Counted from the first letter of the stretch, positions 19,607 through 39,320 are shown. The stretch: 64,000 nt of DNA from Candidatus Zhuqueibacterota bacterium (GCA_049322915.1 JBMOPW010000001.1:1-64000), one strand, 5' to 3'. Notes: generated from the sequence alone by a model not told the origin. Translations and numbers: made by a program.

Positions 19607-19682
19607 TTGACTTTTTTAAAAAGAGTTCTATATTAATCTGTAACAATTACAAAATGTAATTATGCTGATTGTAACAACTAAG
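19607..19682 (+). promoter_or_regulatory. Sigma-70 promoter with candidate Fur/PerR-family operator
   Basis: TTGACT-N16-TATATT, then palindrome TGTAA-CAA-TTACA (19639-19651) and a second TTGTAACAA copy (19669). Confidence 0.6.
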
Positions 19683-19951: not shown

Positions 19952-20407
19952 ATGAACTATGGTCAACTTGCAACGACGACGCACCTGCGAGAATTGCTGG
20001 TTAAAAAAGGAGTGAAACCGTCTTTTCAGAGAGTATACATTTTGCAGTATATCATGAATTCGATAGCGCACCCTTCAGTGGATGAAGTTTATAATGCACT
20101 GTACAATGAAATACCGACATTGTCCAAAACGACGGTGTACAACACGTTGAAAATGTTTGCTGAGAAGGGCCTTGTTTCTGCCCTCACGATTTCTGATACG
20201 GAAATGAGATATGATCATGCCGGAACGCGACATGCTCATTTCATGTGTCTTGTTTGCCACAGGATTTATGATATTCCATTGGAATCAAATTTATTGACCA
20301 TCGAGAAGATAGATGATCATGAGATAGTTCAAACTGAAATTTCGTTCAAAGGTATTTGCAAGTCGTGTCTGAATTCAAAATCCGATGAGCGTTCCATTGA
20401 AACCTAA
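19952..20407 (+). CDS. Fur/PerR-family transcriptional regulator
   Basis: HPSVDEVY, PTLSKTTVYNTL, HAHFMCLVC, GICKSC. Confidence 0.9.
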   Translation: MNYGQLATTTHLRELLVKKGVKPSFQRVYILQYIMNSIAHPSVDEVYNALYNEIPTLSKTTVYNTLKMFAEKGLVSALTISDTEMRYDHAGTRHAHFMCLVCHRIYDIPLESNLLTIEKIDDHEIVQTEISFKGICKSCLNSKSDERSIET

Positions 20408-20590: not shown

Positions 20591-21931
20591 ATGGAATGGC
20601 CTATTTTTCAGATGCCATTTATCGGTAATCGTTTGTTGGTAGCAATTGTCGGTGTGATTCATGTATGCATTTCGCACGGAATGGCCGTGGGGGGAAGCTA
20701 TTTTATCGTGTTTCTCCACTACAAGTCTCTCCGTGAAAATGACATGAGACTGAATGAACTGGCCCTCAAGGTGCTACGGGTTTTTTTCATCGTTACAACA
20801 TCATTTGGAGCGCTGACCGGAGTGGGCATTTGGCTCACAACAGCCACCGTCTCGCCCGTGACCATCGGCTCCATGCTGCGCATCTTCTTCTGGGTTTGGT
20901 TCATTGAATGGATCGTCTTTGTCTCCGAGGTTGTGTTGATCATGTTCTATTACCTGGGCTGGCAAAAATATGGTCCAAAGAAAGGCTTCAGAATCGGGAT
21001 CATCTACGTCGTCGTCTCGTGGCTGACCATGATGCTGATCACCGGCATTCTCGGCGCCATGCTGACGCCGGGAAAATGGCTGGCCACCCAATCCGTCTGG
21101 GATGGCTTCTTCAATCCCACCTATCTGCCCCAGTTGATGAGTCGTACTTTTTTAGCGGCAATTTTGTCCGTGAGTTTCGGTCTGCTCATCATGCGGTTCA
21201 TGAAAAGCTACCGGGACATGTGGCCCAAAGTGTGGCGATTCGCCGGCATCAGCCTGATGGTGACCGCTCCCATCTATCTTTACGGCGTGCTCAGCTACTA
21301 TCACGTCCTGCCGCAGCACATTGGCAACCTCATTCCCACCGCACTGATGACGCTGAAATTCTCCGCCTACGCCCATATCAGCAAACTGTACTATCTGGTG
21401 ACGATGCTCATCCTGTTCGTTTTTGGCGCGATTCTCCTGATCCGCAAAAAGGATTATGTCGTCATCTCCATCATCCCGATTATCCTGATGATCGGCGCGG
21501 TAGGCCAGTTTGAACGGGTGCGGGAATTCATCCGCAAGCCGTTCACCATTCACGAGTACCTCTATTCCAACGCCATCCGCGCGGCGGAGCAGCCGTTTCT
21601 CGAAAAAGATGGCATTCTCAAATACGCTGGCTGGGCGGCTCGTTCAGCGAAAGAGACCGACCCAGTTCTGAGAAACGGCGAGATGATTTTCAAAGTGGAA
21701 TGCTCCACCTGCCACACCTATACCGGCGTCAACGGCATCACCAAAAAGACCAACATCCTGCAGAGCCAGGAACTCAACGAAAATTTCCTCAAAACATACA
21801 AACGCTCCCATCCCTACATGCCTCCTTTCACCGGAACCGATGAGGAGCGAGTTGCGCTGGCCGCCTATCTGGATAAAATCGTGAAGCAGGCCCACGGCGT
21901 GAAAACACAACTGACGGAGGTGAAAAACTGA
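20591..21931 (+). CDS. Cytochrome bd-like subunit (CydA homologue, OR-C type) with C-terminal c-type heme
   Basis: Aligns by eye with CydA in this window (IHVCISH, FGALTGVGI, IEWIVFVSE, MLTPG, EFIRKP); no Q-loop; CSTCH..YMPPF. Confidence 0.75.
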   Translation: MEWPIFQMPFIGNRLLVAIVGVIHVCISHGMAVGGSYFIVFLHYKSLRENDMRLNELALKVLRVFFIVTTSFGALTGVGIWLTTATVSPVTIGSMLRIFFWVWFIEWIVFVSEVVLIMFYYLGWQKYGPKKGFRIGIIYVVVSWLTMMLITGILGAMLTPGKWLATQSVWDGFFNPTYLPQLMSRTFLAAILSVSFGLLIMRFMKSYRDMWPKVWRFAGISLMVTAPIYLYGVLSYYHVLPQHIGNLIPTALMTLKFSAYAHISKLYYLVTMLILFVFGAILLIRKKDYVVISIIPIILMIGAVGQFERVREFIRKPFTIHEYLYSNAIRAAEQPFLEKDGILKYAGWAARSAKETDPVLRNGEMIFKVECSTCHTYTGVNGITKKTNILQSQELNENFLKTYKRSHPYMPPFTGTDEERVALAAYLDKIVKQAHGVKTQLTEVKN

Positions 21932-21932
21932 C

Positions 21933-23219
21933 ATGGATATTTTACCCATCGATATTCCGCTCGATCTGCCAGCCGCACTATGGTTTTTGAAATTTGTATT
22001 GATCGCTTTTTTCCTGCTGCACATCCTGTTCATCAATTTTATGATCGGGGGGACAATCTGGACGGTGTTCATGAAAATGCTGGGCCGCGAGGATCCATTC
22101 TGGCACCGAGTGGCAAAGGATATTGGCAATACAGTCACGGTGAACAAGAGTCTCGCGGTCGTGCTTGGAATTGCGCCGCTGCTGACAGTCAGTCTGGTGT
22201 ACACTCAGTTTTTCTATTCGGCCAACAATATCACAGCGCCTTTGTGGTTGTCCATCATCTGGCTGGTGCCGACAGCGTTCATCTCCCTTTACATTTTCAA
22301 ATACACCTGGGATTCCCGACATTACAGCGAGAAATTCAAGTATTTCTGGGGCCTGCTGGCCGTCGCCATTTTCATGTTCGTGCCGCTGATTTTTCTTTCG
22401 AATATTAATTTGATGCTGTACCCGGATCAGTGGAAAAACGTGTACAATTTCTGGCAGGCCATCTGGGTACCCAATGTGCTGCCGCGCTATCTTCATTTCA
22501 TGAATGCCAGTCTGGCCATCACCGGTTTTTTTGCCTATGGCTATTTTCATGTCAAAGGAAGGAACAAGCCGGACGATCTGGCCTATTACAAGCGGGCCAG
22601 TCGGCTGGGCATGAAGTGGGCGCTGTTCGCCACGCTGCTGCAAATGGTGTTCGGCGTTTTGAATTACGCGACTCTGCCCATGATCGCGGATTCGGCGCTG
22701 GTGTTGATTTTGATACTGATCACGGTTGTTATCGCCGGCATCGTGGTGTACCTGTTGTCGCTCAATTTATTCGCTGAAAAAAATATTCGTCCTGCGGTGA
22801 TTCTGACGCTGGCGTTGATCGTGGTGGCTCTCATGGCCACGCAGCGTCATTTCATCCGGGAAAATGCATTGACAGAGCCGAAGAAAATGCTGGCCAATAA
22901 AACGGACATCTACCGAACGCGACTGGCGGCATTCCTGAAAAACTATTCGCCCACCGGGGAAATAAAGGTGACCGGACAGTCCATTTTTCAGGATGTGTGC
23001 ATGTCCTGTCACGCAATTGACCGGAAGGTGGTTGGCCCGCCCATGTCGTACGCGATTGATAAATATAAAAATACTCCGGATGCCATGGTCGCCTTTGTCA
23101 ATAGTCCGAAAAAAGTGAATCCCGACTACCCGGTCATGCCCAAACCGCCGGTCTCGCCGGCTGAAATCGACATGGTGGTAGATTATTTATTAAACCTGGA
23201 GAAGGGAAAAAATGAATAA
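21933..23219 (+). CDS. Cytochrome bd-like partner subunit (CydA'-like) with C-terminal c-type heme
   Basis: LLHILFINFMIGG, LPRYLHF, about 9 TMs; CMSCH..VVGP..VMP class I cytochrome c domain. Confidence 0.7.
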   Translation: MDILPIDIPLDLPAALWFLKFVLIAFFLLHILFINFMIGGTIWTVFMKMLGREDPFWHRVAKDIGNTVTVNKSLAVVLGIAPLLTVSLVYTQFFYSANNITAPLWLSIIWLVPTAFISLYIFKYTWDSRHYSEKFKYFWGLLAVAIFMFVPLIFLSNINLMLYPDQWKNVYNFWQAIWVPNVLPRYLHFMNASLAITGFFAYGYFHVKGRNKPDDLAYYKRASRLGMKWALFATLLQMVFGVLNYATLPMIADSALVLILILITVVIAGIVVYLLSLNLFAEKNIRPAVILTLALIVVALMATQRHFIRENALTEPKKMLANKTDIYRTRLAAFLKNYSPTGEIKVTGQSIFQDVCMSCHAIDRKVVGPPMSYAIDKYKNTPDAMVAFVNSPKKVNPDYPVMPKPPVSPAEIDMVVDYLLNLEKGKNE

Positions 23220-23757
23220 GAAATTGCCCATGATATTGGCTGGTTTAGCGGTGGTGTGGATTGTTGCGGTCGTCGCACTGGTCTATGCCTCCCACCTGAT
23301 CATCCACCGTTTCGGGCCGCTGCCTCAGCAGCCGATTCAATTTTCGCACACCACTCATGTCAACAAATTGAACATGGAGTGCCTGTATTGCCACGCCGCC
23401 GCTGAGAAATCGATTCATGCGACCATTCCGGAAGGCGAGCTCTGTTACTCGTGCCACGAAGACGCCGATATCGACAAGCCCGAAGTGAAAAAAATGCTGG
23501 CCATGTTTGAAGCGCAGAATAAAATCTACTGGGATCGTGTCTACACGGTGAAAGATCACGTGTATTTCAGCCATCGCGTTCATACCATGGTCGCGAAACT
23601 GGAATGCCAGGAATGCCACGGCCCCATCGAGAATATGACAGTGGCGATTCGTTCATCCGGCGGGGCATCGGATCGGGGATTTCTGGAAATGGGCTGGTGC
23701 GTCACCTGCCATAAGAAACGCGGCGCCCCGCGGGAATGCATCACATGCCACAAGTGA
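23212..23757 (+). CDS. actA: Alternative complex III pentaheme cytochrome c subunit
   Basis: N-terminal TM, QPIQFSH, five CxxCH motifs, MGWC; no extra monoheme domain. Confidence 0.85.
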   Translation: MNKKLPMILAGLAVVWIVAVVALVYASHLIIHRFGPLPQQPIQFSHTTHVNKLNMECLYCHAAAEKSIHATIPEGELCYSCHEDADIDKPEVKKMLAMFEAQNKIYWDRVYTVKDHVYFSHRVHTMVAKLECQECHGPIENMTVAIRSSGGASDRGFLEMGWCVTCHKKRGAPRECITCHK

Positions 23758-23916
23758 AAATGGCCGCCGCCGATGGCGTCTCTCCATCCGTTTGATTGCG
23801 GCATTGGGTGGTGCGCGTTGCACGAAATGTAGTTTGTACCTGGACATAGAAAACTGACGAAGCTCTCATCGAATGATTTCGAATGTGAACTGAGTCAGAA
23901 ATGAGGAGAAGTGAAC

Positions 23917-26796
23917 ATGAATTTGGATAGACGAGATTTCATAAAATCATTGGGGTCATTGAGCCTGGTGATGGTGCCGGATCTCAGCCAGGGCCCGTTG
24001 CGGAAATTATTCCCGATGCTGATTCCGGCTGAGGAGATCATCCCGGGCGTGCCGTACTGGTATGTGTCGACCTGCCGCGAGTGCCCGGCTGGCTGCGGCG
24101 TTTTGCTCAAAGTCCGCAATGACAATGTGATCAAAATAGAAGGGAATCCCAACCATCCGGTCAATTGCGGCGGACTCTGTGCCCGCGGACAGGCGGCGCT
24201 TCAGGAATTGTACAGCGCAGAGCGGCTGCAAGCGCCCATGAAAATTCCGGCCTCTGGCCCGCGCGAGCGAACCACGTGGGATGCTGTCATTCCTGAGTTG
24301 AAGGCGAAGATGGGCGCCGGCAAAACCGTCGTGCTCAGCGGCGATCTTTCCGGCAGCCAAAAATCCTTTGTGGAAAAATGGATTGCAGGAATCGCCGGCA
24401 ACGCTGAACTTGTCATGTACGAGCCGTTCCATCGGGCCGGCTATCGCCGGGCGAACGAGATTGTGTTCGGTAAAAATGTGGATTCCAGGTATCATCTCGA
24501 TAAAGCGGATTATGTGTTGTCTTTCGGCGCTGATTTTATGGAAACCTGGCAATCGCCTGTTGCATTGAGCCGCGACTTTTCCGATGCGCGGCGATTCAGA
24601 AATGGCCGGTCGGCAAAACTGGCGTACGTGGGAATCGCCGACAGCATCACCGCCACAAACGCCGATGAAGAGTACAAAATTAATCCGCTGTCCGAGACCG
24701 TGCTGCTGCTGGCGCTGGCCAGTCAGTTGCTGGAGAAAAATTCCAGGCTGAACATGGAAAGCCGGGAGAGGCAACGCTGGCGGTCTCTTCTCGGGAAATA
24801 CACGCCGGAATTGGCCGCGGAATATTCCGGGCTGACGGTTCAGAACGTGGTTCATCTGGCTGAGCAATTGCTGGCGTTCAAAAACAGCGTCCTGCTTTGC
24901 GGCGAATCGCTGGCTGCTCATGAACATGCCACAGCGTCGCTCGTGGCCGCCAATCTGGTCAATTACTTTGCCGGCAATTACGGCGTCACTATTTCGCTGG
25001 GCAGCCCGGACGCGACCGTTGGTTCCATGACTGCGCTGGAGCAGTTGCTGCGCGAGATGGAAGCCGGACAGGTCGCTCACCTCATCATGTACAACACCAA
25101 TCCGGCGTTCACCTATCCGGACAGGGAGCGGTTGGCTGCGGCCTTCAAAAAAGTCGGACTGAAAATCGCCCTGGCCACGACGCCCAACGAGACGACGGAA
25201 TTGGCGGATTACGCACTGCCGGTCTCCCATGCCATTGAAACGTGGGGCATTGAATCCCCGCAGCCCGATGTATTTTCGCTGGTTCAGCCGGGAATGAAAC
25301 CGGTGTTCGATTCAAAGCCCATGGAAGAGGCGCTGATTGCCCTGGCGCCTGTGGCATCGCTGCCGGACTCGCTGGAGAAATTTATCGAAGATGAATGGCA
25401 ATCCATTTTCCGGCTGAAACCGGCGGCATCGTCGTTTCCTGACAACTGGAAAGAATTGCTATTGACCGGGGGAGTCTGGCTAACGAGCGAAGCCGTACCG
25501 CCTGCGCCAGCGCTTTCTTCGCGATTGTCCGGCTATCTGAATGCCCTGGCGATGCCGGAAAAATCGGCTGGTGTTGCGCTGCTTGTCAATTTCAGCCATC
25601 GCTTTTTTGACGGCCGCGGCGCCAATAAACCCTGGCTCTGGGAGGTGCCCAATGCCCTGTCTCACACGGTGTGGGATACTCCGCTCCGAATTCATCCGAA
25701 ACGCGCCGAGCCACTGGCCCTGAAGGAAGGCGACATCGTCGCCATTTCGGCCAATGGCCGCACCATCGAAGCGCCGGTCTTGCTGACGGAGCACGTCCAT
25801 CCGTCTGTCGTTGCCATGGAATTCGGCGCCGGGCATGCGCATTACGGCGCTGCGGCTGTCAAAGAGACCGGCAATCCGTGGCTGCTGCTCTCCGGCGCCG
25901 GGGACGACAATGGCGATGTGATGCTGGTGACCCGGGATATTCAGATGAAAAAGACCGGCAAATGGCGCAAGCTGGTCCGAATTCAGGGCGGCTATGACCA
26001 GGGCGAGCGCAACATCATCCAGCAGATGCATTTAGACCATGCCATTCAACTCGAAAATAGTCACGCGAAGCGGATCGAGCCGCATCATCCGCAGATTTAT
26101 CCAGTGCACGAGCACAAGAAATACGACTGGACCATGGTGGTTGACCTGTCCGCATGCATCGGCTGCGGCGCGTGCGCTGTGGCCTGTTACGCTGAAAATA
26201 ACCTGGCAACGGTCGGCAAAACTCAATGCGACAATGGCCGGGAAATGGCATGGCTGCGCATCGAGCGGTTTGATGTGGACGGCCGTTCGCGGTTCATCCC
26301 GGTGATGTGCCAGCACTGCGAAAATGCGCCGTGCGAAACGGTCTGCCCTGTCTACGCCACAGTGCACAGCGACGAAGGGCTCAATGTGCAGGTGTACAAT
26401 CGCTGCGTGGGCACACGGTATTGCTCGAACAACTGTCCCTACAAAGCGCGACGGTTCAATTTTTTCCATTACACATGGGAGGAACCGGCAAAACGTCAGC
26501 TCAATCCGGACATTTATCATCGGCCCAAAGGCGTCATGGAAAAGTGCACGTTTTGCGTGCATCGGATTCGAAAGGCCAAAGAAGACGCCAAATTGGAGGG
26601 CCGCGTTGTGGCCGATGGTGAGGTGATGCCGGCATGCGCTCAGTCCTGTCCGACGCAGGCGATCACCTTCGGCAATATCAATGATCCTGAAAGCAAAGTC
26701 TCGAAACTGCTGCATGATTTCAGGGGTTATCAACTATTCGAAAATTTGAACACCCAACCCTCGGTCATCTATCTAAAAGGGATTAAACATGAATAA
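23917..26796 (+). CDS. actB: Alternative complex III ActB (molybdopterin-oxidoreductase-like domain fused to Fe-S domain), Tat substrate
   Basis: Tat motif DRRDFIK; EEIIPGVPYWY; KIEGNPNHP; CIGCGAC, CQHCENAPCETVCP, CVGTRYCSNNCPY, MEKCTFC, ACAQSCP. Confidence 0.9.
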   Translation: MNLDRRDFIKSLGSLSLVMVPDLSQGPLRKLFPMLIPAEEIIPGVPYWYVSTCRECPAGCGVLLKVRNDNVIKIEGNPNHPVNCGGLCARGQAALQELYSAERLQAPMKIPASGPRERTTWDAVIPELKAKMGAGKTVVLSGDLSGSQKSFVEKWIAGIAGNAELVMYEPFHRAGYRRANEIVFGKNVDSRYHLDKADYVLSFGADFMETWQSPVALSRDFSDARRFRNGRSAKLAYVGIADSITATNADEEYKINPLSETVLLLALASQLLEKNSRLNMESRERQRWRSLLGKYTPELAAEYSGLTVQNVVHLAEQLLAFKNSVLLCGESLAAHEHATASLVAANLVNYFAGNYGVTISLGSPDATVGSMTALEQLLREMEAGQVAHLIMYNTNPAFTYPDRERLAAAFKKVGLKIALATTPNETTELADYALPVSHAIETWGIESPQPDVFSLVQPGMKPVFDSKPMEEALIALAPVASLPDSLEKFIEDEWQSIFRLKPAASSFPDNWKELLLTGGVWLTSEAVPPAPALSSRLSGYLNALAMPEKSAGVALLVNFSHRFFDGRGANKPWLWEVPNALSHTVWDTPLRIHPKRAEPLALKEGDIVAISANGRTIEAPVLLTEHVHPSVVAMEFGAGHAHYGAAAVKETGNPWLLLSGAGDDNGDVMLVTRDIQMKKTGKWRKLVRIQGGYDQGERNIIQQMHLDHAIQLENSHAKRIEPHHPQIYPVHEHKKYDWTMVVDLSACIGCGACAVACYAENNLATVGKTQCDNGREMAWLRIERFDVDGRSRFIPVMCQHCENAPCETVCPVYATVHSDEGLNVQVYNRCVGTRYCSNNCPYKARRFNFFHYTWEEPAKRQLNPDIYHRPKGVMEKCTFCVHRIRKAKEDAKLEGRVVADGEVMPACAQSCPTQAITFGNINDPESKVSKLLHDFRGYQLFENLNTQPSVIYLKGIKHE

Positions 26797-28132
26797 GGAA
26801 AATTACTTTTCTCCCATGCTCACCGCTGATGATATCAACCGCCGGGTACTCGATCCAATCCGCAAGCCGGGAATCGGTTTCTATTTGCTGATGCTGCTAT
26901 TCCTGAGCTTTGTGGCGTTTGGCGTGACATGTCTGGGGTTGCAGATATTCAAGGGGCTTGGACTTGCCGGGATAAATAACCCGGTCGGCTGGGGCATTTA
27001 TCTGGTGAACTTCGTCTTCTGGGTTGGAATTGCCCATTCCGGAACGCTCATCTCTGCGATACTCTATCTCTTCCGATCTCGTTGGCGAACCAGCGTCAAT
27101 CGGATTGCCGAAGCCATGACCGTATTTGCCGTGATGATGGCCGGCCTTTTCCCGCTGATTCATGTCGGGCGAATCTGGTTTGCCTACTGGCTTTTCCCGT
27201 ATCCCAACGCGCGAACCCTGTGGGTGAATTTCCGCTCACCGTTGAACTGGGACGTATTCGCCGTGTCCACGTACATGACGGTGAGTACGTTGTTTTTCAT
27301 CGTCGGCATGATCCCGGATATGGCCGTATTGCGGGACAGATTCAAAGGGTTGCGCAGCAAAATTTACGGCGTCTTCGCGTTGGGCTGGCGTGGCACGCAC
27401 AAGCAATGGCATCATTATGAGACTGCCTACATATTGTTCGCGGCGCTGGCCACGCCGCTGGTGATTTCAGTTCACAGCATCGTGTCGTGGGATTTCGCCA
27501 TGTCGGTGCTGCCCGGCTGGCATAGCACTATTTTCGCGCCCTATTTCGTCGCCGGGGCCATTTTCTCCGGCTGCGCCATGGTCATCACCATCCTTTTCCC
27601 ATTGCGCAAAGTTTTTCATCTGGAGGAACTCATCACCGAAAAACATTTCACCCGCCTCTCGCAAATGATGCTGCTGACGTCGCTCATCGTCACCTATTCG
27701 TACGCAACGGAGTTTTTCATTGCCTGGTACGGGCATAATATTTTTGAACAGGATTCCTTTTACAACCGCGCGTTCGGATTTTATGGCCCCTATTTCTGGG
27801 CCATGTTGTTCTGCAATTCGATTTTACCCATGTCCATCTTCTTCAAAAAAATCCGGACGAATGTGAAAATCCTGTTCACCATTTCCATTTTCGTGAATAT
27901 CGGCATGTGGCTGGAGCGATTTGTCATTATCATCAGTTCACTTGCCCACGACTTCGATCCCTACTCCTGGGGAAAATACGCGCCGACCTATATCGAATGG
28001 GGCGTGTTCATCGGCAGCGTCGGCGGATTTTTAATCCTGTTTTTCTCCTTTGTGAAATTTGCGCCGGTCGTGGCAATCAGCGAGGTCAAAGGACAAATTC
28101 ACCATGATGTTCATGGAGGTGCGCATGACTGA
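26789..28132 (+). CDS. actC: Alternative complex III quinol-binding NrfD-family subunit
   Basis: NFVFWVGIAHSGTLISAIL, RIAEAMT, HVGR, NFRSPLNWD, SVHSIVSWDFA, GMWLERF. Confidence 0.92.
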   Translation: MNKENYFSPMLTADDINRRVLDPIRKPGIGFYLLMLLFLSFVAFGVTCLGLQIFKGLGLAGINNPVGWGIYLVNFVFWVGIAHSGTLISAILYLFRSRWRTSVNRIAEAMTVFAVMMAGLFPLIHVGRIWFAYWLFPYPNARTLWVNFRSPLNWDVFAVSTYMTVSTLFFIVGMIPDMAVLRDRFKGLRSKIYGVFALGWRGTHKQWHHYETAYILFAALATPLVISVHSIVSWDFAMSVLPGWHSTIFAPYFVAGAIFSGCAMVITILFPLRKVFHLEELITEKHFTRLSQMMLLTSLIVTYSYATEFFIAWYGHNIFEQDSFYNRAFGFYGPYFWAMLFCNSILPMSIFFKKIRTNVKILFTISIFVNIGMWLERFVIIISSLAHDFDPYSWGKYAPTYIEWGVFIGSVGGFLILFFSFVKFAPVVAISEVKGQIHHDVHGGAHD

Positions 28133-28658
28133 GATGAAGAAACGTGTGAAATCAGTGTATTCTGATTATGGTAAATTCATCGCTGCGTTGAAATTGCTGG
28201 CAACGAAATCGGGTCTGGACATGGAAGTGTTTTCGCCCATGCCGCTGCATGATGTGGAAAAAATTCTGCCGCAAAAGCCAAGTCCGGTGCGCTGGTTCAC
28301 TTTTGTGGGTGGCTTGCTTGGGATGAGCATCGGATTCGGTTTCCCGATTTATACAGTGTTGCAGTGGCCGCTCATCACCGGCGGAAAGCCGGTGGTCACG
28401 ATACAGGTTTTCATCATCATCGCTTTTGAATTGCTTATCCTGTTCGGCGCCATCTTCACACTGATCGGATTGCTGATCACTGCCCGGCTGCCCCGCGGCA
28501 AGCTGGCCAATTACGATACGCGATTTTCAGAAAACTCTTTTGGTATGATTATCAGGACGGATCCGGCCAACGTGGCGGAGCTTCGCGATATTCTGAAACA
28601 GGCGGACGATCTGGCCGTCGATGATGTGGAAGTGCTCGCTGTCGGCGCCAATGCCTGA
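28125..28658 (+). CDS. actD: Alternative complex III ActD (DUF3341-like)
   Basis: EVFSPMPLH, WPLITGGKP, IAFELLILFGA, YDTRFSENSFG; ggagg RBS. Confidence 0.85.
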   Translation: MTEMKKRVKSVYSDYGKFIAALKLLATKSGLDMEVFSPMPLHDVEKILPQKPSPVRWFTFVGGLLGMSIGFGFPIYTVLQWPLITGGKPVVTIQVFIIIAFELLILFGAIFTLIGLLITARLPRGKLANYDTRFSENSFGMIIRTDPANVAELRDILKQADDLAVDDVEVLAVGANA

Positions 28659-28782
28659 CAGCGCGGCTGACCCGGGCGCAGAAGCCGATGGACGCCCCAA
28701 AAAGGAGTGGCTCGATGCGAGTCCGATCGGCGTCACCACCGGAAGCGATACTCAAAACCATTTTACAGAGGTAAGCTCATGA
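28651..28782 (+). CDS. 43-aa ORF in the actE position, overlapping both actD and actF
   Basis: MPDSAADPGAEADGRPKKEWLDASPIGVTTGSDTQNHFTEVSS*; starts at the actD stop (ATGCCTGA) and ends in an ATGA overlap with actF; no CxxCH. Confidence 0.3.
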   Translation: MPDSAADPGAEADGRPKKEWLDASPIGVTTGSDTQNHFTEVSS

Positions 28783-29882
28783 GAGACAATAATGCATTGC
28801 TAAAAAATATACGAATCATTGTTGCGGCCTTCATTCTGGCAGGTATCTTTTTTATAGTTCGGGGCGGAGCAGGCGACTATCCCGTCCGAATGTGGCAGAT
28901 TTATCTCGTCAATTTTCTGCTGTGGACCGGCATTGCTCAGGGAGGCGTTGTTTTCTCCGCCATTCTGGAAGTGACCAATGCCCGCTGGGGAAAGCAGATG
29001 CGCCAGGTGGCGGAATCCTTCGTGGTGTTTCTGCCGCTCTCGCTCATCCTGCTGCTGGTTATGCTCCTCGGCGCTGACCATATTTTCCCCTGGATCTCCA
29101 AAGTGCCCATCTCCGAAGAGAAGCGAATTTATCTCAATCTGCCCTTTCTGTTTGGACGCGCCTTCCTTGGCCTGGGGCTGTTGACATTGCTTAGCTTCAC
29201 GTTCATTCGGAAACGGCGCAGCGCGGACATCGGACAGGGGGAGCGCCCCCGAAAATTAGCTGTGGGCTTGCTGATTATCTACGCGATTGTCTATACATAC
29301 ATTTCCTTTGATTTTATCATGTCGTTGGCCCCGCACTGGTACAGCACCATCATGGGAATGCATTTCTTCACCGCCTGTTTTTACACCGGCCTGGCCGTGA
29401 TCACCGTGTCCGCTGTATTCGGCCGATGGTCTCTGTTCCCTAAAGACTTCATGAGCCAGAGCGATTTTCATGATCTGGGCAAATTGCTGTTCGGATTTTC
29501 CATTTTCTGGATGTCGCTGCTGTGGTCGCAATTTCTGGTTATCTGGTACGGCAATATCCCTGAGGAGACAGAATTCCTGCATCTCCGCTTGTACGAGCTC
29601 CCCTGGAAATCATTCACCTGGGCGGTCATTGTGCTTGGATTCATCGTGCCGCTGGTGATTCTGCTCAACAAAAAAGGGAAGACCACACAGTTTGTCATTG
29701 GCGCAGTGGGGCTGCTCATTTTGATCGGCTCCTTTTTTCATGTCTACATACTCATCGTTCCATCATTGAATCCGCACCATCTATATTTTGGGCTGAGCGA
29801 AATATTGATCTCATCAGGCTTTCTTGGATTGTTCATCATCAGCCAGGATATCGGGCTGAAGCGTCTGCCAATTGCCGAGTGA
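28779..29882 (+). CDS. actF: Alternative complex III ActF (ActC paralogue)
   Basis: DFIMSLAPHWYST, FHDLGKLLFGFSIFW..SQFLVIWYGNIPEET; gaggt RBS before ATG 28779. Confidence 0.88.
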   Translation: MRDNNALLKNIRIIVAAFILAGIFFIVRGGAGDYPVRMWQIYLVNFLLWTGIAQGGVVFSAILEVTNARWGKQMRQVAESFVVFLPLSLILLLVMLLGADHIFPWISKVPISEEKRIYLNLPFLFGRAFLGLGLLTLLSFTFIRKRRSADIGQGERPRKLAVGLLIIYAIVYTYISFDFIMSLAPHWYSTIMGMHFFTACFYTGLAVITVSAVFGRWSLFPKDFMSQSDFHDLGKLLFGFSIFWMSLLWSQFLVIWYGNIPEETEFLHLRLYELPWKSFTWAVIVLGFIVPLVILLNKKGKTTQFVIGAVGLLILIGSFFHVYILIVPSLNPHHLYFGLSEILISSGFLGLFIISQDIGLKRLPIAE

Positions 29883-29965
29883 TGCGCCCACCCATTTGGC
29901 TGAAATGAGCCAGGCCGATACATCGATCCGCTACCCACCGAAATGGGCGGCATTCTCAGCGTTAC

Positions 29966-29992
29966 AAAAAGCCCAATCCGGGCTTTTTTTTT
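29966..29992 (+). terminator. Intrinsic terminator after the ACIII operon
   Basis: aaaaagccc-aatcc-gggc followed by a T9 run. Confidence 0.7.
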
Positions 29993-30083
29993 GGCCATAC
30001 GTTTCGTGGTATGTTACCTGGATTCCGGTCGATTGGATCGGGAAAATTCATGGAGCTAAAATGACAACGGTTTAATTTTTCTC

Positions 30084-30138
30084 TTGACAAAGAAGAAAAT
30101 AATTTTATATTTAAAGGGGACAAAAAAGGTCATGTTTA
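30084..30138 (+). promoter_or_regulatory. Sigma-70 promoter with candidate Rrf2 operator
   Basis: TTGACA-N16-TATATT, then imperfect palindrome TAAAggGGAC-N7-GTCatgTTTA. Confidence 0.55.
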
Positions 30139-30174
30139 TCTTTTACTGAGATAGTCCAAATTTAAAGGTACTCC

Positions 30175-30612
30175 ATGCAATTATCCCGGGCAGGGGAATA
30201 TGCGGTGCGTGCGATGCTTCATCTGGCCGCCATGGAAAATAAAGGCGTCAGCCAGATTCCAGCGATTTCCAAAATTTGGGATGTGCCGGAAAGTTTCCTG
30301 CGCAAAATTTTGAATTCCCTGGTTAAAGCGCAACTGGTGATTTCCATGCGGGGGACAGGCGGTGGATTTCTGTTGGCCCGTGCGGCGAGCGATATTACGC
30401 TCCTGGATATTTTTGAAGCCATCGAGGGGAAGGTGTATCTGAACCAGTGCCTCGTCGGGCCGGGGTCATGCAAGAACAGAACCTGGTGCCCGGTTCACGA
30501 CGTCTGGCGCGAGGCGCAAAAATCGTTCACCGATGTGCTGAGCCGGAAGAGCCTGGCGGATATGGTGTCCAATCCTGAATTTAAAAGCCGTTTCGAAAAA
30601 ATGTTGGAATGA
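30175..30612 (+). CDS. Rrf2-family transcriptional regulator with three Cys (probable Fe-S ligands)
   Basis: EYAVRAMLHLA, FLRKILNSL, RGTGGGFLLA, C-x6-C-x5-C. Confidence 0.9.
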   Translation: MQLSRAGEYAVRAMLHLAAMENKGVSQIPAISKIWDVPESFLRKILNSLVKAQLVISMRGTGGGFLLARAASDITLLDIFEAIEGKVYLNQCLVGPGSCKNRTWCPVHDVWREAQKSFTDVLSRKSLADMVSNPEFKSRFEKMLE

Positions 30613-30781
30613 CGACGTGTATCCAATCCTGAATACAATGCGCGAATGAAAGATTCACAAAAAGCAAAGGAGAATTCTTTATGACCTGAGGGAGAGCGAT
30701 TTTTTTCTCTGCTGTTTCACAAACTGTATCAAAACATAGCTACTGAGCTGCACAAACACGGATTACTTTAGGGAGGTAAAA

Positions 30782-32107
30782 ATGGATCCAGTATTTTTGT
30801 CGCGTTTGCAATTTGCTTTTGCCGCTGGCTTTCATTTTCTGTTTCCCCCATTGACAATGGGATTGACATTAATCATATTTATTCTTGAAAGCCTCTATCT
30901 GAAAAAGGGCGAGGAAGTCTATAAAAATGTATCCGATTTTCTCATCAAAATTTTCGCCCTGGTTTTTGTGTTGGGAACCGCCACCGGAATTACGCTTGAA
31001 TTCGCGTTCGGTACCAACTGGTCCAATTATTCGAGAATGGTGGGCGATATCTTTGGCGCGCCTCTGGCTGCTGAAGGTGTGTTCGCCTTTTTCATGGAAT
31101 CTATCTTTTTAGGCATTCTGATTTTCGGTCGCAACAAAGTCTCCAAAAAGATGTACCGTCTGTCGGCCTTTTTAGTGTTCTTCGGCGCGCATCTTTCCGG
31201 GCTGTGGATTATCATCGCCAATTCGTTCATGCAGACGCCGGCCGGGTATGCCATCGAAGGCGGCCGGGCGGTGCTGACTGACTTTTTTGAAGCGGCCATC
31301 AACCATTCGACAATTCAACGCTATACGCACACCATCGTCGGCGGCTGGATTACCGGCTCGCTGCTGGCAGCCGGCATTGGCGCCTGGTATGTACTCAAAA
31401 ATAAACATCTGGATTTAGCAAAAAAATTAGTGCAGGTGTCTCTGGTTGTCTTTATTGTCGCCGGAGTATTGCAATTACTCACCGGCCACCAGCATGGCAT
31501 TCAGGTCGGGAAAACGCAACCGGCGAAATTGGCCGCGTACGAAGGACTCTGGGAAACACAGCAAGGAGCCAGTCTGAGTCTGTTCGGCATCCCGGATGAA
31601 ACAAAGGAGACGACCCATCTCAGCATCGGCATTCCCAAACTGCTGAGCATTTTTGTCTATCTGGACCCCAACGCTGAAATCAAAGGGCTGAAAGATTTTC
31701 CGAAAGATGAACGTCCGCCGGTTCTCATTTCCTTCACGACGTACCATATCATGATAATCCTGGGGACGTTATTCGTGCTCATTGCTGTCATCGCGGCGTT
31801 TCTGCTGTGGAAGGACAAATTATGGGAGACGAAGTGGTTCCTGTATGCGCTGCTGTTCTCCATTCCGCTGCCGCACATTGCCAATCAAACCGGGTGGATG
31901 GCCGCAGAAATTGGTCGCCAGCCCTGGGCAGTTTATGGCGTGCTGAAGACCGCGGACGCGGCGTCCGTCGTTGTTCCGGCCGGACAAATTCTGTTCACGC
32001 TCATCATGTTCATTCTCATCTATGCATTTCTTTTCTGGATCTTCATCAAACTATTGTTGAAAATGGTACGCAAAGGCCCTTCGGAATTAACCGGTTACAG
32101 CTATTAA
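30782..32107 (+). CDS. cydA: Cytochrome bd quinol oxidase subunit I
   Basis: LSRLQFA..FHFLF, EFAFGTNW, Q-loop QPAKLAAYEG, GWMAAEIGRQPW. Confidence 0.95.
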   Translation: MDPVFLSRLQFAFAAGFHFLFPPLTMGLTLIIFILESLYLKKGEEVYKNVSDFLIKIFALVFVLGTATGITLEFAFGTNWSNYSRMVGDIFGAPLAAEGVFAFFMESIFLGILIFGRNKVSKKMYRLSAFLVFFGAHLSGLWIIIANSFMQTPAGYAIEGGRAVLTDFFEAAINHSTIQRYTHTIVGGWITGSLLAAGIGAWYVLKNKHLDLAKKLVQVSLVVFIVAGVLQLLTGHQHGIQVGKTQPAKLAAYEGLWETQQGASLSLFGIPDETKETTHLSIGIPKLLSIFVYLDPNAEIKGLKDFPKDERPPVLISFTTYHIMIILGTLFVLIAVIAAFLLWKDKLWETKWFLYALLFSIPLPHIANQTGWMAAEIGRQPWAVYGVLKTADAASVVVPAGQILFTLIMFILIYAFLFWIFIKLLLKMVRKGPSELTGYSY

Positions 32108-32122
32108 ACAAGGAGGATGAAA

Positions 32123-33121
32123 ATGGATTTATATCTTTTACAGAATATCTGGTATATCCTGGTCGGCGTGTTGCTGATGGGATATGCAATTCTTGACGGA
32201 TTTGACCTGGGGGTTGGTTCGCTGCTGCCGTTCTTGGGCAAGAATGAAAAAGAAAAACGCGCGTTGTTAAATACAGTCGGGCCTTTCTGGGATGGCAATG
32301 AAGTCTGGCTGCTGACCGGCGGTGGCGCACTCTTCGCCTCGTTCCCCCATGCATACGCGACGGTCTTCAGCGGCTTTTACCTGGCCCTGATGCTGGTGCT
32401 GTTCGCATTGATTTTCCGGGCAGTTTCCATGGAGTTTTACGCCCACGATGACGAGCGACGAACATTCTGGCAATGGGCTTTCGTCGTCGGCAGCTTGCTG
32501 CCGTCGCTGCTGTACGGCGTGGCGCTGGGCAATGTCATTCTCGGCGTTCCACTGGATGTGAACAAGGAATTCACCGGGAATTTCTTCACGCTGCTGCGAC
32601 CATTCCCATTGGCCATTGGTCTCCTCGGATTGAACGCGATTCTGTTGCAGGGCAGCACCTACGCCGCATTGAAAACCTCCGGCGATATTCAGGCCAGAGC
32701 GAAAAAACTGGCCAACTCTCTCTGGCTGTCGTTCATCGTGCTGTTCATCCTCGCGTCGGTTCTCGCATTTCTCATGGTGCCTGGCTCAGCCACCCGGATT
32801 TTGGCCTGGCTGGCTACGATCGTCGTTCTTGCTGCATGGGTCATGATTAAATCATCGCTGAGCAAAGGCAAAGAAGTGATGGCGTTTTTGATGTCGTCTC
32901 TCGTGTTTGTCGGACTGTGGGGAATTGTCGGCGCCATTCATTTCCCCAACCTGGTGAAAGCAAGCAACGATGCAGCGCTCAGTCTGACCATTGTCAATGC
33001 TTCATCCACCCAGCTCACGCTGACAGTCATGCTGATCATCGCCTTGCTGGGGATGCCGCTGGTTTTACTGTATACCTATTACATTTTCAAAGTGTTTAAA
33101 GGCAAAGTGGAAGCTGCATAA
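32123..33121 (+). CDS. cydB: Cytochrome bd quinol oxidase subunit II
   Basis: LDGFDLGVG, PFWDGNEVWL..GGALFASFP; aggagg RBS. Confidence 0.95.
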   Translation: MDLYLLQNIWYILVGVLLMGYAILDGFDLGVGSLLPFLGKNEKEKRALLNTVGPFWDGNEVWLLTGGGALFASFPHAYATVFSGFYLALMLVLFALIFRAVSMEFYAHDDERRTFWQWAFVVGSLLPSLLYGVALGNVILGVPLDVNKEFTGNFFTLLRPFPLAIGLLGLNAILLQGSTYAALKTSGDIQARAKKLANSLWLSFIVLFILASVLAFLMVPGSATRILAWLATIVVLAAWVMIKSSLSKGKEVMAFLMSSLVFVGLWGIVGAIHFPNLVKASNDAALSLTIVNASSTQLTLTVMLIIALLGMPLVLLYTYYIFKVFKGKVEAA

Positions 33122-33142
33122 TTCATTCATTCAGAATTTTTC

Positions 33143-33178
33143 AAAGGCTGGAACAACTGCTGTACGTTCCAGCCTTTT
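33143..33178 (+). terminator. Intrinsic terminator after cydB
   Basis: aaaggctggaac..gttccagcctttt. Confidence 0.7.
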
Positions 33179-33282
33179 CTATTTGATTCCCGTTTAAAAT
33201 TAAATCGCGGTCTGGATGAGCCGATTGCACGCGCTCAAGCTAATAAACCGGATTCCTTTGAGAAATGAAAAATAAATTTAAC

Positions 33283-33311
33283 TTGATTTTGTAATTATTT
33301 TAAATTATATT
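33283..33311 (+). promoter_or_regulatory. Sigma-70 promoter with candidate Fur/PerR-family operator in the spacer
   Basis: TTGATT-N17-TATATT; 33288-33306 TTTGTAATTATTTTAAATT is the exact reverse complement of 60803-60821. Confidence 0.7.
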
Positions 33312-33353
33312 TGGTTTAAATTGAATTTGTTATCATATCGTGTGGTGAACAGA

Positions 33354-33773
33354 ATGGAATACTACAAAAATATCCTGATTGAAAAAGGAATCAAACCGAC
33401 ATTCCAGAGAATGAAGATTTTAGAGTTCCTTGATAAAACAGATATCCACGCCACCGTCGATATGATTTATGCCTCGTTGTTCAGAAAAGTGCCGACGCTC
33501 TCCAAAACGACCGTTTACAACACGCTGGATGTTCTCAGAAAACACGGACTGGTCAACGTTTTGACGATCACTGAATCGGAGCTACGGTACGAGTACTTTC
33601 ATGAAATCCACCATCATTTCCTTTGTAGAAATTGCAGGCAGATTATTGATTTGCATGTGAAATGTACCTACGAAGAAATGATGCAGATTGAAGGACATAA
33701 AATAGAAGAGATCCATGGATATTTTAAAGGAGTCTGCAGAGACTGTCTCGGCAAAATGAATAACAGTGAATGA
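33354..33773 (+). CDS. Second Fur/PerR-family regulator
   Basis: GIKPTFQR, PTLSKTTVYNTL, HHHFLCRNC, GVCRDC; clear paralogue of the 19952 gene. Confidence 0.9.
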   Translation: MEYYKNILIEKGIKPTFQRMKILEFLDKTDIHATVDMIYASLFRKVPTLSKTTVYNTLDVLRKHGLVNVLTITESELRYEYFHEIHHHFLCRNCRQIIDLHVKCTYEEMMQIEGHKIEEIHGYFKGVCRDCLGKMNNSE

Positions 33774-33794
33774 TTTATTTTCGAGGAGGTTTGT

Positions 33795-34295
33795 ATGGCT
33801 GAAGCGAAGGTTCTGGATATTTTGAAAGGCGCGATATTGCTGGAGAAAAAGGGGAAGGTGTTCTATGAAAAGACGGCTGCTCAAACAGAAAGCGCCGCTG
33901 TTCGGGAAGTGTTTGAAACGATGGCAAAGGAGGAAGACCATCACGTGGAAATTCTCACCAACCAGTTTGAATCCTACAGGAAGAACGGTCGCCTGGCAGC
34001 GCTGAAATATAATGCCAGTCCCGAACCGGTGAGTAATGCCGTCCTGACGCGACAGATTCGCGACGAGATCCATGCTTCAAGCTACGAAGCTGCGGCGATT
34101 TCAGCGGCGATGGCCATGGAGGATAAAGCGGTCGCCTATTATTCGGGAAGAGCCCATGCGACGGACGATGCCGAAGAAAAGAGGCTATACGAGTGGTTGG
34201 CAATCTGGGAAAAAACACACCTGCAATTCTTGAGTGATATCGATAAAGAACTTCAGCAAAATGTATGGTACGATAATCAATTCTGGCCCATGTAA
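33795..34295 (+). CDS. Ferritin-like di-iron (rubrerythrin-domain) protein
   Basis: Two E..FY/YY..ExxH repeats (EEDH, EKTH); no rubredoxin domain. Confidence 0.85.
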   Translation: MAEAKVLDILKGAILLEKKGKVFYEKTAAQTESAAVREVFETMAKEEDHHVEILTNQFESYRKNGRLAALKYNASPEPVSNAVLTRQIRDEIHASSYEAAAISAAMAMEDKAVAYYSGRAHATDDAEEKRLYEWLAIWEKTHLQFLSDIDKELQQNVWYDNQFWPM

Positions 34296-34470
34296 AATTG
34301 CCCCGAATTTTTGAATCACCGGGAGCATCGCAGCAGCTCGTTGGATTATTGCGGACAGCACAGCGCGATGAAGTGAATGGAGCATGATCCGAAAATTGTA
34401 ACTGCTGAAAGATGATAACTGAATTGTCAAAATAACACCCGTAACTATTTTATCGACAGGAGGAGTAGTA

Positions 34471-34977
34471 ATGAAAAAGATGACAGAGAAATCCCTGCAG
34501 GAAGCGTTTGCTGGCGAATCCATGGCTCACATGAAATATCTCATTTTCAGCGATGTGGCTGAGAAAGAAGGATTCCCCAAGATTGCCAAATTGTTCAAAG
34601 CGATCGCCTATGCGGAACAGGTTCATGCGACAAACCATGCGCGTAACCTGGGATATATCAAATCAACGTCGGAAAATCTGATGACCGGAATTGAAGGTGA
34701 GTCATTCGAAGTGGATGAAATGTACCCGGCCTACGACGCCATTGCAAAATTGCAGGGCGAAAAAGCCGCCGAGAAATCTATTTTCTATGCTGTAGAAGCT
34801 GAGAAAATTCATGCGGAATTCTATAAACAAGCCAGGAAAAAAGTCGAGAGCAAAAAGGACTTTGTCCTGGAATCGGTGTATATTTGCCCGGTCTGCGGCT
34901 TTACCCACATTGACGATGATTTGCCGGAATTCTGCCCGGTCTGCGGCGTGTCCAGTGAAAAATTCAAAAAGTTCTAG
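34471..34977 (+). CDS. rbr: Rubrerythrin
   Basis: AFAGES, EQVHA, EMYP, EKIH, C-terminal CPVCG..CPVCG. Confidence 0.92.
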   Translation: MKKMTEKSLQEAFAGESMAHMKYLIFSDVAEKEGFPKIAKLFKAIAYAEQVHATNHARNLGYIKSTSENLMTGIEGESFEVDEMYPAYDAIAKLQGEKAAEKSIFYAVEAEKIHAEFYKQARKKVESKKDFVLESVYICPVCGFTHIDDDLPEFCPVCGVSSEKFKKF

Positions 34978-34999
34978 GACCGAATAGAATGGAGTCGAC

Positions 35000-35043
35000 A
35001 AAAGGCTGTTTACCGGAATGATTTCCTGAATGGCCTTTTTTTT
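35000..35043 (+). terminator. Probable intrinsic terminator
   Basis: aaaaggctgtt..aatggcc followed by a T8 run. Confidence 0.5.
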
Positions 35044-39205: not shown

Positions 39206-39320
39206 GTCGCTCCATCGGCGTCAGAACAGAGCAGCCGTGCGCATCGGCAACGGTTGGCGCGCTGAAATCACCTGAAAAGTGAAAAAATATTCCAAGCGTA
39301 TCAGATTGATTTTTCTTGGA

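Follow-up and report, generated by a model that had tools for sequence, protein, structure and literature searches.

What do two cytochrome-c-bearing membrane proteins do when their genes stand directly before those of an alternative complex III (ACIII) that has no ActE? The question arose in a 64,000-nucleotide stretch of DNA (the window) from Candidatus Zhuqueibacterota, in a genome that is 96% complete. Seven genes, a-b-actA-actB-actC-actD-actF, occupy positions 20591-29882 on the plus strand. An initial annotation had proposed a copper-free chain running from quinol through ACIII and cytochrome c to a bd-like oxidase. The bd fold and OR-C features of a and b, the conserved gene order and the failure to find ActE, COX2 or bc1 in the genome partly support this chain, which we refined by treating a and b as non-equivalent. 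We estimate a probability of about 0.6 that the cluster encodes a quinol:O2 line, composed of an ActE-less ACIII and an OR-C-type heterodimer, for low-O2 respiration or scavenging.

The cluster and its flanks

19607-19652, plus strand: sigma-70-like promoter (TTGACT-16-TATATT) with a downstream palindrome, from a promoter scan
19952-20407, plus strand: Fur-family regulator, PerR-like (Pfam FUR, E 4e-23), 183 bp 5' of a
20591-21931, plus strand: subunit a (OR-C1a type), 446 aa, one CxxCH at C371
21933-23219, plus strand: subunit b (OR-C1b type), 428 aa, one CxxCH at C356
23212-23757, plus strand: ActA, 181 aa, five CxxCH; best PDB matches are ACIII ActA (E 1.8e-26)
23917-26796, plus strand: ActB, B1 and B2 fused, RRDFIK Tat-like start; best PDB matches are ActB (E 1.8e-129)
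26789-28132, plus strand: ActC, the quinol-site subunit (E 4.6e-141 to 6F0K_C)
28125-28658, plus strand: ActD (Pfam ActD, E 3.2e-38)
28779-29882, plus strand: ActF, NrfD-like second membrane subunit (Pfam NrfD, E 6e-9), a homologue of ActC
29966-29992, plus strand: likely intrinsic terminator (A5-GCCC-loop-GGGC-U9 hairpin), closing the cluster before rrf2-cydAB

The open reading frames of a, b and actA were found where the initial annotation had placed them, with a 1-bp gap between a and b and an 8-bp overlap that takes in the b stop codon and the actA start, followed by actBCD-F. Gaps of 159 bp between actA and actB and of 120 bp between actD and actF leave room for separate transcription. 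The hairpin at 29966-29992 folds at -12.9 kcal/mol (z -3.16), with equally good folding in 0/200 shuffles; it was not among the outputs of a consensus terminator scan.

Upstream, the palindrome TGTAA-n3-TTACA (19638-19652) is kept 5' of the same gene in G124, a genome of the same genus. It is possibly a Fur/PerR-type operator, but we treat it as a lead and rejected it as a proven operator, because the motif, whose consensus was built from the same three sites, has 33 matches genome-wide against 34 and 23 in shuffles. PerR is the best NCBIfam model for the Fur-family regulator (99 bits, cut-off 180), and among the labelled loci the gene holds the same position 5' of a only in G124; it may or may not be co-transcribed with a.

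Around the cluster lie cydAB (a canonical CydAB, in the window at 30782-33121), two PerR-like regulators, two rubrerythrin-family genes, a glutathione peroxidase and an Rrf2 regulator. We counted the cydAB, PerR-like, rubrerythrin-family and glutathione peroxidase neighbours towards a low-O2 reading; this setting suggests low-O2 use, in respiration or scavenging, by a mostly anaerobic cell.

Subunits a and b in the bd superfamily

Both proteins had been called homologues of CydA, which was borne out by profile and predicted fold and not by pairwise BLAST. BLASTP of a and b against the in-window CydA gave no significant match (best E 1.6 and 0.019, respectively), because a pairwise method is too insensitive at such distance. 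Pfam returned cytochrome c domains only, with no CydA or CydB match, and both Pfam and NCBIfam label the two as plain cytochromes c. By profile, a matched the CydA of G. thermodenitrificans (5DOQ) with E 2.8e-11. In Foldseek searches with predicted models (pLDDT 89.7 for a and 90.1 for b), the ten best matches of each were bd subunit I; structural alignment of the b model to bd subunit I gave Z 24-26 and rmsd 3.1-3.5 A over ~300 residues, while Foldseek is the sole structural support for the fold of a. A search of the ESM Atlas returned only the a/b family itself. Profile-profile comparison of a with b (E 9.7e-24) identified them as adjacent paralogues. A hydropathy scan gave seven hydrophobic segments, and the predicted models have an eight-helix-type membrane domain. 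All six motifs quoted in the initial annotation occur in the proteins named, but the three that match CydA are found only in a and none in b.

As had been claimed, the quinol-binding Q-loop is absent from both subunits: opposite the QPAKLAAYEG region of CydA both profiles show gaps or short, unrelated segments, and the motif is absent from b. Each protein also ends in a monoheme cytochrome c, with one CxxCH and an invariant distal Met (His/Met heme c). From the topology of CydA, the heme c domains presumably lie on the periplasmic side. By these features and by the description in the preprint that defined the family (Murali, Gennis, Hemp, bioRxiv 10.1101/2021.01.16.426971), a and b fit OR-C1a and OR-C1b. 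With the eight-heme OR-C copy of the genome, a type listed under OR-C1a in the preprint text, subunit a shares 31% identity. Two other assignments were rejected: canonical CydAB (qOR), since the pair is without Q-loop and CydB and a is without the helix-5 His; and OR-N, which has 10-14 helices by the definition in the preprint text, since a and b are of the eight-helix type and bear heme c.

Only a keeps the residues of the O2 site and proton channel. Its putative site and channel residues H24, E106, E113, E312 and R315 are invariant in 78/78 homologues. H24 aligns with the helix-1 His of 5DOQ (E. coli His19 equivalent), and E106 and E113, with six residues between them, align with 5DOQ E101/E108 (the E99/E107 proton-channel pair). 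The His/Met heme c of a is formed by C371, C374, H375 and M410. In place of the helix-5 His of CydA, a has R185/T186, so the b558-type His is missing from it. That His is present in b, where the candidate heme-b ligands are H30 (the helix-1 His, 91/91 homologues), H188, M301 and H306. Subunit b has neither channel glutamates nor any conserved Glu in helix 3, and its C-terminus is a helical stalk with a c551-like heme c domain (C356, C359, H360, M402).

The literature searched yielded neither the purification or assay of an OR-C enzyme nor its electron donor, so homology is the basis for taking O2 as the substrate; a quinol-oxidising CydAA' of the bd superfamily has been shown to reduce O2, according to the preprint text (bioRxiv 2021.01.16.426971). 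The same line might instead serve another acceptor (NO, peroxide or another oxidant), which would make the cluster a detoxifying sink. Subunit a does depart from CydA in an extra invariant His (H29), in S/T at position 83 with no equivalent of CydA E74, and in an R309-x-R311 motif; peroxide-defence genes surround the cluster, an Rrf2 regulator adjoins it, and two CydAB in the genome already serve O2. However, neither the proton-channel glutamates nor the O2-site heme ligands vary among homologues of a, the genome has a dedicated qNOR, and the a/b family occurs in many aerobic genera (by record titles, e.g. Flavobacterium, Methylobacter, Xanthobacter). We regard an acceptor other than O2 as quite improbable.

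The ACIII genes and the missing ActE

Apart from ActE, the ACIII set is complete by its features: a pentaheme ActA, ActB, ActC with equivalents of His139, Asp169 and Asp253, ActD and ActF. H125, D155, D235 and S227 of ActC align with H139, D169, D253 and S245 of R. marinus, whose roles are taken from the portion consulted of PMC5928083. ActA has a single N-terminal helix and a cytochrome c of five hemes, and it carries no additional monoheme domain. All six frames of 28100-30200 are free of CxxCH. Both results agree with the initial annotation of a pentaheme-only ActA and no actE in the cluster. Neither tblastn with two ActE sequences nor an 11-sequence profile, which finds ActE in the control genome G059, located an ActE in the genome. 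COX2 and bc1 cytochrome b were likewise not found there; the sole COX1-family gene reads as a qNOR, and no heme-copper O2 reductase was found. Neither an ActE nor a heme-copper oxidase partner encoded elsewhere, either of which, if it copurified, had been named as grounds for abandoning the chain, was found in the genome. Its other electron sinks are a second, eight-heme OR-C pair, two CydAB, the qNOR and many multiheme cytochromes. Markers of both known menaquinone ring pathways were looked for and neither was found, which we counted against our best explanation.

The monoheme lipoprotein ActE is a usual and not a universal subunit of ACIII. Since it is dispensable in F. johnsoniae (PMC8552683, text consulted), an ACIII that lacks it may need no substitute. 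Its distribution nevertheless points to one. The arrangement a-b-actA is found in 17 genomes and in one metagenome contig; where the actD-actF junction of these carriers is visible, it contains no actE (15/15). The a subunits linked to ACIII group together in a single clade (16 rows, FastTree support 100), and the ACIII-linked b subunits do likewise (8 rows, support 95/91). In a co-occurrence count of the kind that the initial annotation had proposed as a check, b and actE were mutually exclusive. We hand-picked 34 other act loci in which actA, actD and actF can all be seen: b precedes actA and actE is lacking in 17, actE is present without b in 16, one has neither and none has both; these are not 34 independent cases, because the loci were hand-picked and the ActE-bearing rows come mostly from one clade (16/18 in the ActC tree). 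Partial matches to the ActE profile lie away from the cluster in G168, G169 and G171 (E 1e-12 to 3e-15).

Sister ActE-less operons beside caa3 genes keep b before actA and have no a. In these b-only operons heme c is kept in 10/10, H188 lost in 10/10 and H306 lost in 9/10, whereas b paired with a keeps H188 in 17/17 and H306 in 16/17. Since b is kept in ActE-less caa3 operons after the loss of its heme-b ligands, it is likely, judging from gene co-occurrence, that b substitutes for ActE through its heme c. The initial annotation had let both heme c domains replace the exit hemes of ACIII; replacement stands for the heme c of b, the likely substitute, but the two subunits are not equivalent, a being the one with the O2 site. 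The b-only and ACIII-paired b subunits may be sisters, a split that has support 80/68. The base of the ActC tree does not resolve the two ActE-less groups, so we claim no order of events. The copper-free character of the chain held here and in 15/17 carriers, in which no heme-copper O2 reductase was found, but not in G137, with sco-coxI right after actF, or in G176, with a cbb3-like module elsewhere.

Alternatively, the pair and ACIII could be co-regulated neighbours that use soluble periplasmic cytochromes, with b serving a purely structural role beside a, and ACIII managing without ActE. Most OR-C pairs stand alone: at 72/80 loci, some with short flanks, act genes do not follow the pair, so other donors can serve it; ActE-less ACIII clusters with no substitute are described for Sphaerobacter and Geobacter M21 (PMC8552683, text consulted), and the 159-bp gap precedes actB here. 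It accords poorly with the overlap of the b stop codon and the actA start, with the retention of b before actA even without a and with decayed heme-b ligands, and with the finding of no plausible soluble monoheme carrier in the cluster. We consider this explanation unlikely.

ActB raises one more possibility. Its N-terminal Fe-S motif of FS0 type (C53-x2-C56-x3-C60-x27-C88; Pfam Molybdop_Fe4S4, E 1.2e-14) has cysteines that are absent in the four solved ActB (6LOD, 8K9E, 6F0K, 6BTM). Flow could be reversed or branched as in Qrc, with a periplasmic donor feeding this Fe-S site and ACIII reducing quinone or splitting electrons between quinone and a/b; electron exchange between the [4Fe-4S] wire and an external carrier has been suggested (Sousa 2018, text consulted), and the best NCBIfam names are QrcA/B/C. 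All four Qrc models, however, fall far under their cut-offs (89.6/180, 219.5/440, 222.2/400, 32.9/570), and ActC, ActD and ActF are of the ACIII type. Qrc (QrcABCD) itself was rejected on these scores and on the presence of ActD and ActF. ActE-bearing ACIIIs (L137-L139, L141-L146) carry FS0 too, so the motif is not specific to this cluster and was rejected as a marker of the architecture. We hold reversed or branched flow to be very improbable.

The proposed electron route and known systems

In the quinol:O2 line that we favour, quinol would be oxidised at ActC, where the residues are conserved and the activity is that expected from homologues. Electrons would then pass through the [3Fe-4S] centre of ActB and the five hemes of ActA, a path established for ACIII. 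Gene co-occurrence suggests that their exit from ActA would be the stalked heme c of b, in place of ActE. They would move on to the heme site of a through its own heme c, through b-type hemes bound by b or through both, as the conserved ligands suggest. There a would reduce O2 to water, drawing cytoplasmic protons via E106/E113, which are present in the protein.

A larger proposal is tentative, and we lean against it. ACIII and OR-C would form an obligate supercomplex, a fourth ACIII wiring, in which the duplicated bd subunit b is a fixed exit cytochrome and a copper-free O2 reductase fed by cytochrome c is coupled directly to quinol oxidation, perhaps with proton pumping. The b-only caa3 operons, probably including that of the Pelobacter 'ActE', would descend from this form, having exchanged the catalytic subunit while retaining the adapter, and the extra Fe-S centre of ActB would be a second electron port.

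The OR-C family received its name in 2021 on the basis of sequence (Murali, preprint text). The cluster gives it a testable candidate donor, ACIII, and a self-contained seven-gene test system, while paired b and b-only forms provide a natural comparison that points to the subunit and residues to test. If our reading is right, a bd-fold enzyme acts as a copper-free cytochrome c oxidase and follows a complex III that may pump protons, which bears on energy conservation by anaerobes at trace O2. Surveys that count only CydAB and heme-copper oxidases would then miss an O2 sink, because Pfam and NCBIfam call a and b plain cytochromes c. It would also re-identify the odd Pelobacter 'ActE' described in 2012.

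As described in the text of the OR-C preprint, which proposes cytochrome c as donor, OR-C1a/OR-C1b are, like a and b, adjacent paralogues of about eight helices with no quinol site and a C-terminal heme c, and have both channel glutamates in a and none in b. Unlike OR-C in that text, both subunits here carry one heme c and belong to an ACIII-linked clade; the text gives no ACIII context, which the operon figure and supplements may show. We found no description of OR-C beside an ActE-less ACIII in the literature searched, which for Murali was the preprint text, and the a-b-act arrangement is not described in the portions consulted of PMC8076601, PMC3534657, PMC5317091, PMC10839748, PMC10732223 and PMC13189123.

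The text consulted of PMC3543383 describes in the Act complex of Pelobacter carbinolicus an eight-helix monoheme 'ActE', Pcar_2549, encoded directly before actA(5 hemes)-B-C-D-F, the order of b-actA here and in the b-only operons. In that paper the protein is interpreted as a channel lined by cysteines, not as a bd fold, and no a subunit is described; compared by description and position alone, Pcar_2549 appears homologous to b. For OR-N5, delivery of electrons from ACIII to a bd-like oxidase has been published before, a precedent that the initial annotation did not mention: Nitrospirales actABCDE adjoin an OR-N5 CydAA' that was read as a terminal oxidase module and is uncharacterised (PMC12342949, text consulted). 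In Ca. Manganitrophus, TO_3 has ACIII genes beside two bd-like subunits without a quinol site (bioRxiv 10.1101/2021.11.15.468770, text consulted). From these accounts, the Nitrospirales clusters keep ActE, are without ActF, split ActB and have OR-N5 downstream, whereas the present cluster is without ActE, keeps ActF, has ActB fused and has the heme-c-bearing OR-C upstream; the OR-C combination with an ActE-less ACIII was not found in print.

The ACIII of R. marinus (6F0K), F. johnsoniae (6BTM), R. castenholzii (6LOD) and C. aurantiacus (8K9E) share with this one a pentaheme ActA, ActB, the quinol-site residues of ActC, ActD and ActF. Unlike those four, it has no ActE, no sixth ActA heme and an extra Fe-S motif in ActB, and its partner has the bd fold where theirs is a heme-copper enzyme. 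The pair resembles canonical CydAB in its subunit-I fold and, for a, in the residues of the O2 site and channel; it differs in being without Q-loop and CydB, in its added heme c domains and in carrying the b558-type His in b rather than in a.

The a-b-act cluster and the identity of its products

Two adjoining genes for cytochrome bd subunit I-like proteins, a and b, each with a C-terminal heme c, stand directly ahead of the genes for alternative complex III (ACIII) in the window:

19952-20407, + strand, perR-like gene
20591-21931, + strand, a (one CxxCH)
21933-23219, + strand, b (one CxxCH)
23212-23757, + strand, actA (five CxxCH)
23917-26796, + strand, actB
26789-28132, + strand, actC
28125-28658, + strand, actD
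28779-29882, + strand, actF
29966-29992, terminator-like hairpin 3' of actF; rrf2-cydA-cydB come next

The junctions measured +1 bp (a/b), -8 bp (b/actA), +159 bp (actA/actB), -8 bp (actB/actC), -8 bp (actC/actD) and +120 bp (actD/actF), in agreement with the 1-bp gap and subsequent 8-bp overlap with actA reported in the initial annotation. Its description of ActA as pentaheme and of actE, encoding the usual monoheme exit cytochrome, as missing also held, with no CxxCH found in any frame across the actD-actF region. The genome is 6.25 Mb in size (completeness 96.3%), and close protein matches carry the label candidate division KSB1. A TGTAA-n3-TTACA-like palindrome lies upstream of both PerR-like genes and the ferritin gene (window 19638, 33289 and 60806); the first two copies are kept in a genome of the same genus (G124), and the motif showed no genome-wide enrichment here.

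BLASTP of a and b against the neighbouring CydA returned nothing significant, so the earlier motif-based claim of homology to CydA called for a test. A profile built from 78 homologues of a gave G. thermodenitrificans CydA as the top solved-structure match (E 2.8e-11) and so supported it. The predicted models (pLDDT 89.7 for a and 90.1 for b) each returned bd subunit I as their ten best Foldseek matches, which places both proteins within the bd fold. The b model aligned with bd subunit I over ~300 residues (Z 24-26), its C-terminal domain resembled cytochrome c551 in structural comparison, and a and b are paralogues (E 9.7e-24).

In a, residues H24, H29, E106, E113, E312, R315 and P317 and the heme c ligands were invariant (78/78 rows); a has no Q-loop and no heme b558 His in helix 5. 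E312/R315 are the counterpart of the CydA EIGRQP motif, whose Glu we take to be a heme ligand (E. coli E445). In b, the channel glutamates are missing; the candidate heme ligands are H30 (91/91), H188 at the b558-His position (89/91), and M301 and H306 (both 91/91). In the numbering of the Murali preprint (bioRxiv 10.1101/2021.01.16.426971), H24 of a corresponds to His19 and E106/E113 to the channel pair E99/E107. Judged by sequence, a and b appear to match the OR-C1a and OR-C1b types of the bd superfamily as that preprint describes them.

ActA, ActB and ActC had ACIII subunits as their top solved-structure matches, and H125, D155 and D235 of ActC correspond to His139, Asp169 and Asp253 of the quinol site in R. 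marinus. Qrc models scored far below cut-off. By contrast with the four solved ActB proteins, which have none, ActB here carries an intact N-terminal C-x2-C-x3-C-x27-C motif (C53-C88, window 24073-24180) of the FS0 [4Fe-4S] type. This motif was present in every ActE-less ActB with a visible start and at nine ActE-bearing loci, and was missing from eight others; it marks a number of ACIII lineages, ActE-bearing and ActE-less alike.

Conservation of gene order and the proposed substitute for ActE

A scan of GTDB genomes for a gave at least 599 stretches, at least 583 of them confirmed. Among the best 80 loci examined, the a-b-actA order occurred in eight, precisely the ones that share 50% identity or more with a. 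The remaining 72 had no same-strand downstream actA, some flanks being short; act-like genes lay on the opposite strand in five of them. Head-to-head or tail-to-tail arrangements of a stand-alone OR-C pair and opposite-strand act or act-like genes occur in unrelated phyla (L063, L080, L060, L018 and L037), a hint that OR-C and ACIII are more widely associated.

Of 167 genomes from the phylum of the window, 41 had an a-type gene and seven had the ACIII link, in identical order. In the phylum-level group around G168, b occurred in 9/11 genomes, all nine with a-b-actA; the group around G167 contributed 1/5 genomes. With duplicates removed, 17 genomes and a metagenome contig (L149) carry the layout, which is spread over separate contigs in G119 and G134; b is broken into two ORFs in G176. 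At all 15 visible actD-actF junctions actE was missing. ACIII-linked a and ACIII-linked b each formed one clade in trees, as did, weakly (93/77), ActC of these loci. The a-b-act feature is real and conserved. In L044 (7322-8875) and L169 (5058-6935), b has two or three tandem heme c domains ahead of actA, which resembles a lengthened wire.

A second ActE-less layout in the phylum has b and no a: sco-coxI-III-IV-coxII(heme c)-ctaB-b-actA-B-C-D-F. Lone b-type membrane cytochromes lie between caa3 genes and actA at L131-L133, L135, L136 and L152-L158. Ten genomes had a full-length b-only protein, eight between ctaB and actA and two at a contig edge. Heme c was kept in 10/10, H188 lost in 10/10 and H306 lost in 9/10; paired b kept H188 in 17/17 and H306 in 16/17. 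Genes inserted into act operons at L134:15903-17880 and L135:10151-14365 are, by our own reading, presumably nucleotidyltransferase/HEPN-like pairs and a restriction-enzyme-like gene accompanied by a methyltransferase gene.

Among 34 loci with visible actA, actD and actF, hand-picked from 75 genomes with ActD, 17 had b without actE (13 paired, four b-only), 16 had actE without b, one had neither and none had both; these amount to a few independent contrasts because the loci were hand-picked and most ActE-bearing rows belong to one clade. Together with the b-only operons, this pattern points to b rather than a as the ActE substitute. On this pattern, the earlier idea that the oxidase heme c domains replace the ACIII exit hemes would probably hold for b rather than for a. 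Co-regulation of ACIII and a/b without wiring appears unlikely.

Electron sinks and partner genes

ActE was found neither by tblastn (two ActE queries) nor by an 11-sequence profile in this genome; in a control genome (G059), the profile gave two strong matches, one outside its 11 sequences. Searches for COX2 and a bc1-type cytochrome b found neither. The sole COX1-family gene (747 aa) has motifs that read as those of a quinol NO reductase (qNOR). In a COX1 search of all 17 carriers (completeness 77-96% where stated; G167-G178 have no stated value), 15 gave no heme-copper O2 reductase: seven had only qNOR-type or qNOR-sized genes (two called by reading the sequence, five by length and score) and eight had nothing above cut-off. 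The exceptions are G137, which holds both layouts and has sco-coxI immediately 3' of actF, and G176, with a cbb3-like module by a second act set (L173:1052-6998). That locus has a scrambled actD-actF-actA followed by cbb3-like CcoN/CcoO and an ActE-like monoheme protein. Partial ActE-profile matches occur elsewhere in G168, G169 and G171.

Cytochrome c maturation genes were found. Further sinks are a second OR-C pair (contig C20), another cydAB (C14) and numerous multiheme cytochromes. Given the invariant heme and channel residues of a, we regard an acceptor other than O2 as quite unlikely. The C20 pair (6748-10508, - strand, b then a) has an 886-aa a with eight CxxCH and a b without heme c; eight-heme and two-heme OR-C forms recur across the phylum.

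The window also holds rrf2-cydAB, a PerR-like gene, two rubrerythrin-family genes and glutathione peroxidase (30175-36077), ferritin, desulfoferrodoxin and peroxiredoxin (60962-62536), and nqr genes; the protective genes and nqr would be typical of an anaerobe that encounters O2. Searches for MqnA/MqnD and MenD found none, and two MenA-like prenyltransferases (C16:226320-227234 and C1:87330-88400) and several quinone-dependent enzymes were present; possible reasons are scavenging of the naphthoquinone ring by the cell and ring genes left unassembled. SdhA/FrdA-like flavoprotein and Fe-S gene pairs lie at window 37457-40164, with no membrane anchor gene recognised beside it, and at C34:139334-141882. 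C34:142551-150927 is a cluster in which a seven-heme cytochrome accompanies a Tat molybdopterin-family subunit, NrfD and Fe-S proteins; it also encodes small heterodisulfide-reductase-like proteins and a transporter. A multiheme cytochrome at window 62542-64000 had a weak hit, 51.6 bits for a cut-off of 250, to the ExtKL (seleno)protein model.

Proposed route and comparison with known systems

Electron flow from quinol through ACIII, b and a to O2 is the most likely reading. ActC would be the site of quinol oxidation; electrons would pass from ActB along the ActA heme wire to the heme c of b, and then to the heme site of a, which would reduce O2 with protons drawn from the cytoplasm. Reverse or branched flow through these components seems very unlikely.

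Both the components and the broad concept are known from earlier work. The paper that describes OR-C suggests cytochrome c as its donor (bioRxiv 10.1101/2021.01.16.426971). In Nitrospirales, ACIII directly adjoins a bd-like pair of another subfamily, OR-N5, with ActE present and ActF missing (PMC12342949), whereas the cluster here has ActF and lacks ActE. For Ca. Manganitrophus, ACIII beside a bd-like pair is described as TO_3 (bioRxiv 10.1101/2021.11.15.468770). ACIII clusters without ActE are known, and ActE of F. johnsoniae is dispensable (PMC8552683). The monoheme, eight-helix 'ActE' ahead of actA-B-C-D-F in P. carbinolicus (PMC3543383) is, compared by description, probably a b-only protein. 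In the literature searched, no description of an ActE-less ACIII cluster with an OR-C pair at its head came up; Murali Figure 1 or supplements and Refojo 2013 might hold one. Through this particular OR-C/ACIII pairing, the separate roles proposed for a and b, and the connection to b-only operons, an oxidase family that is so far uncharacterised becomes open to direct tests.
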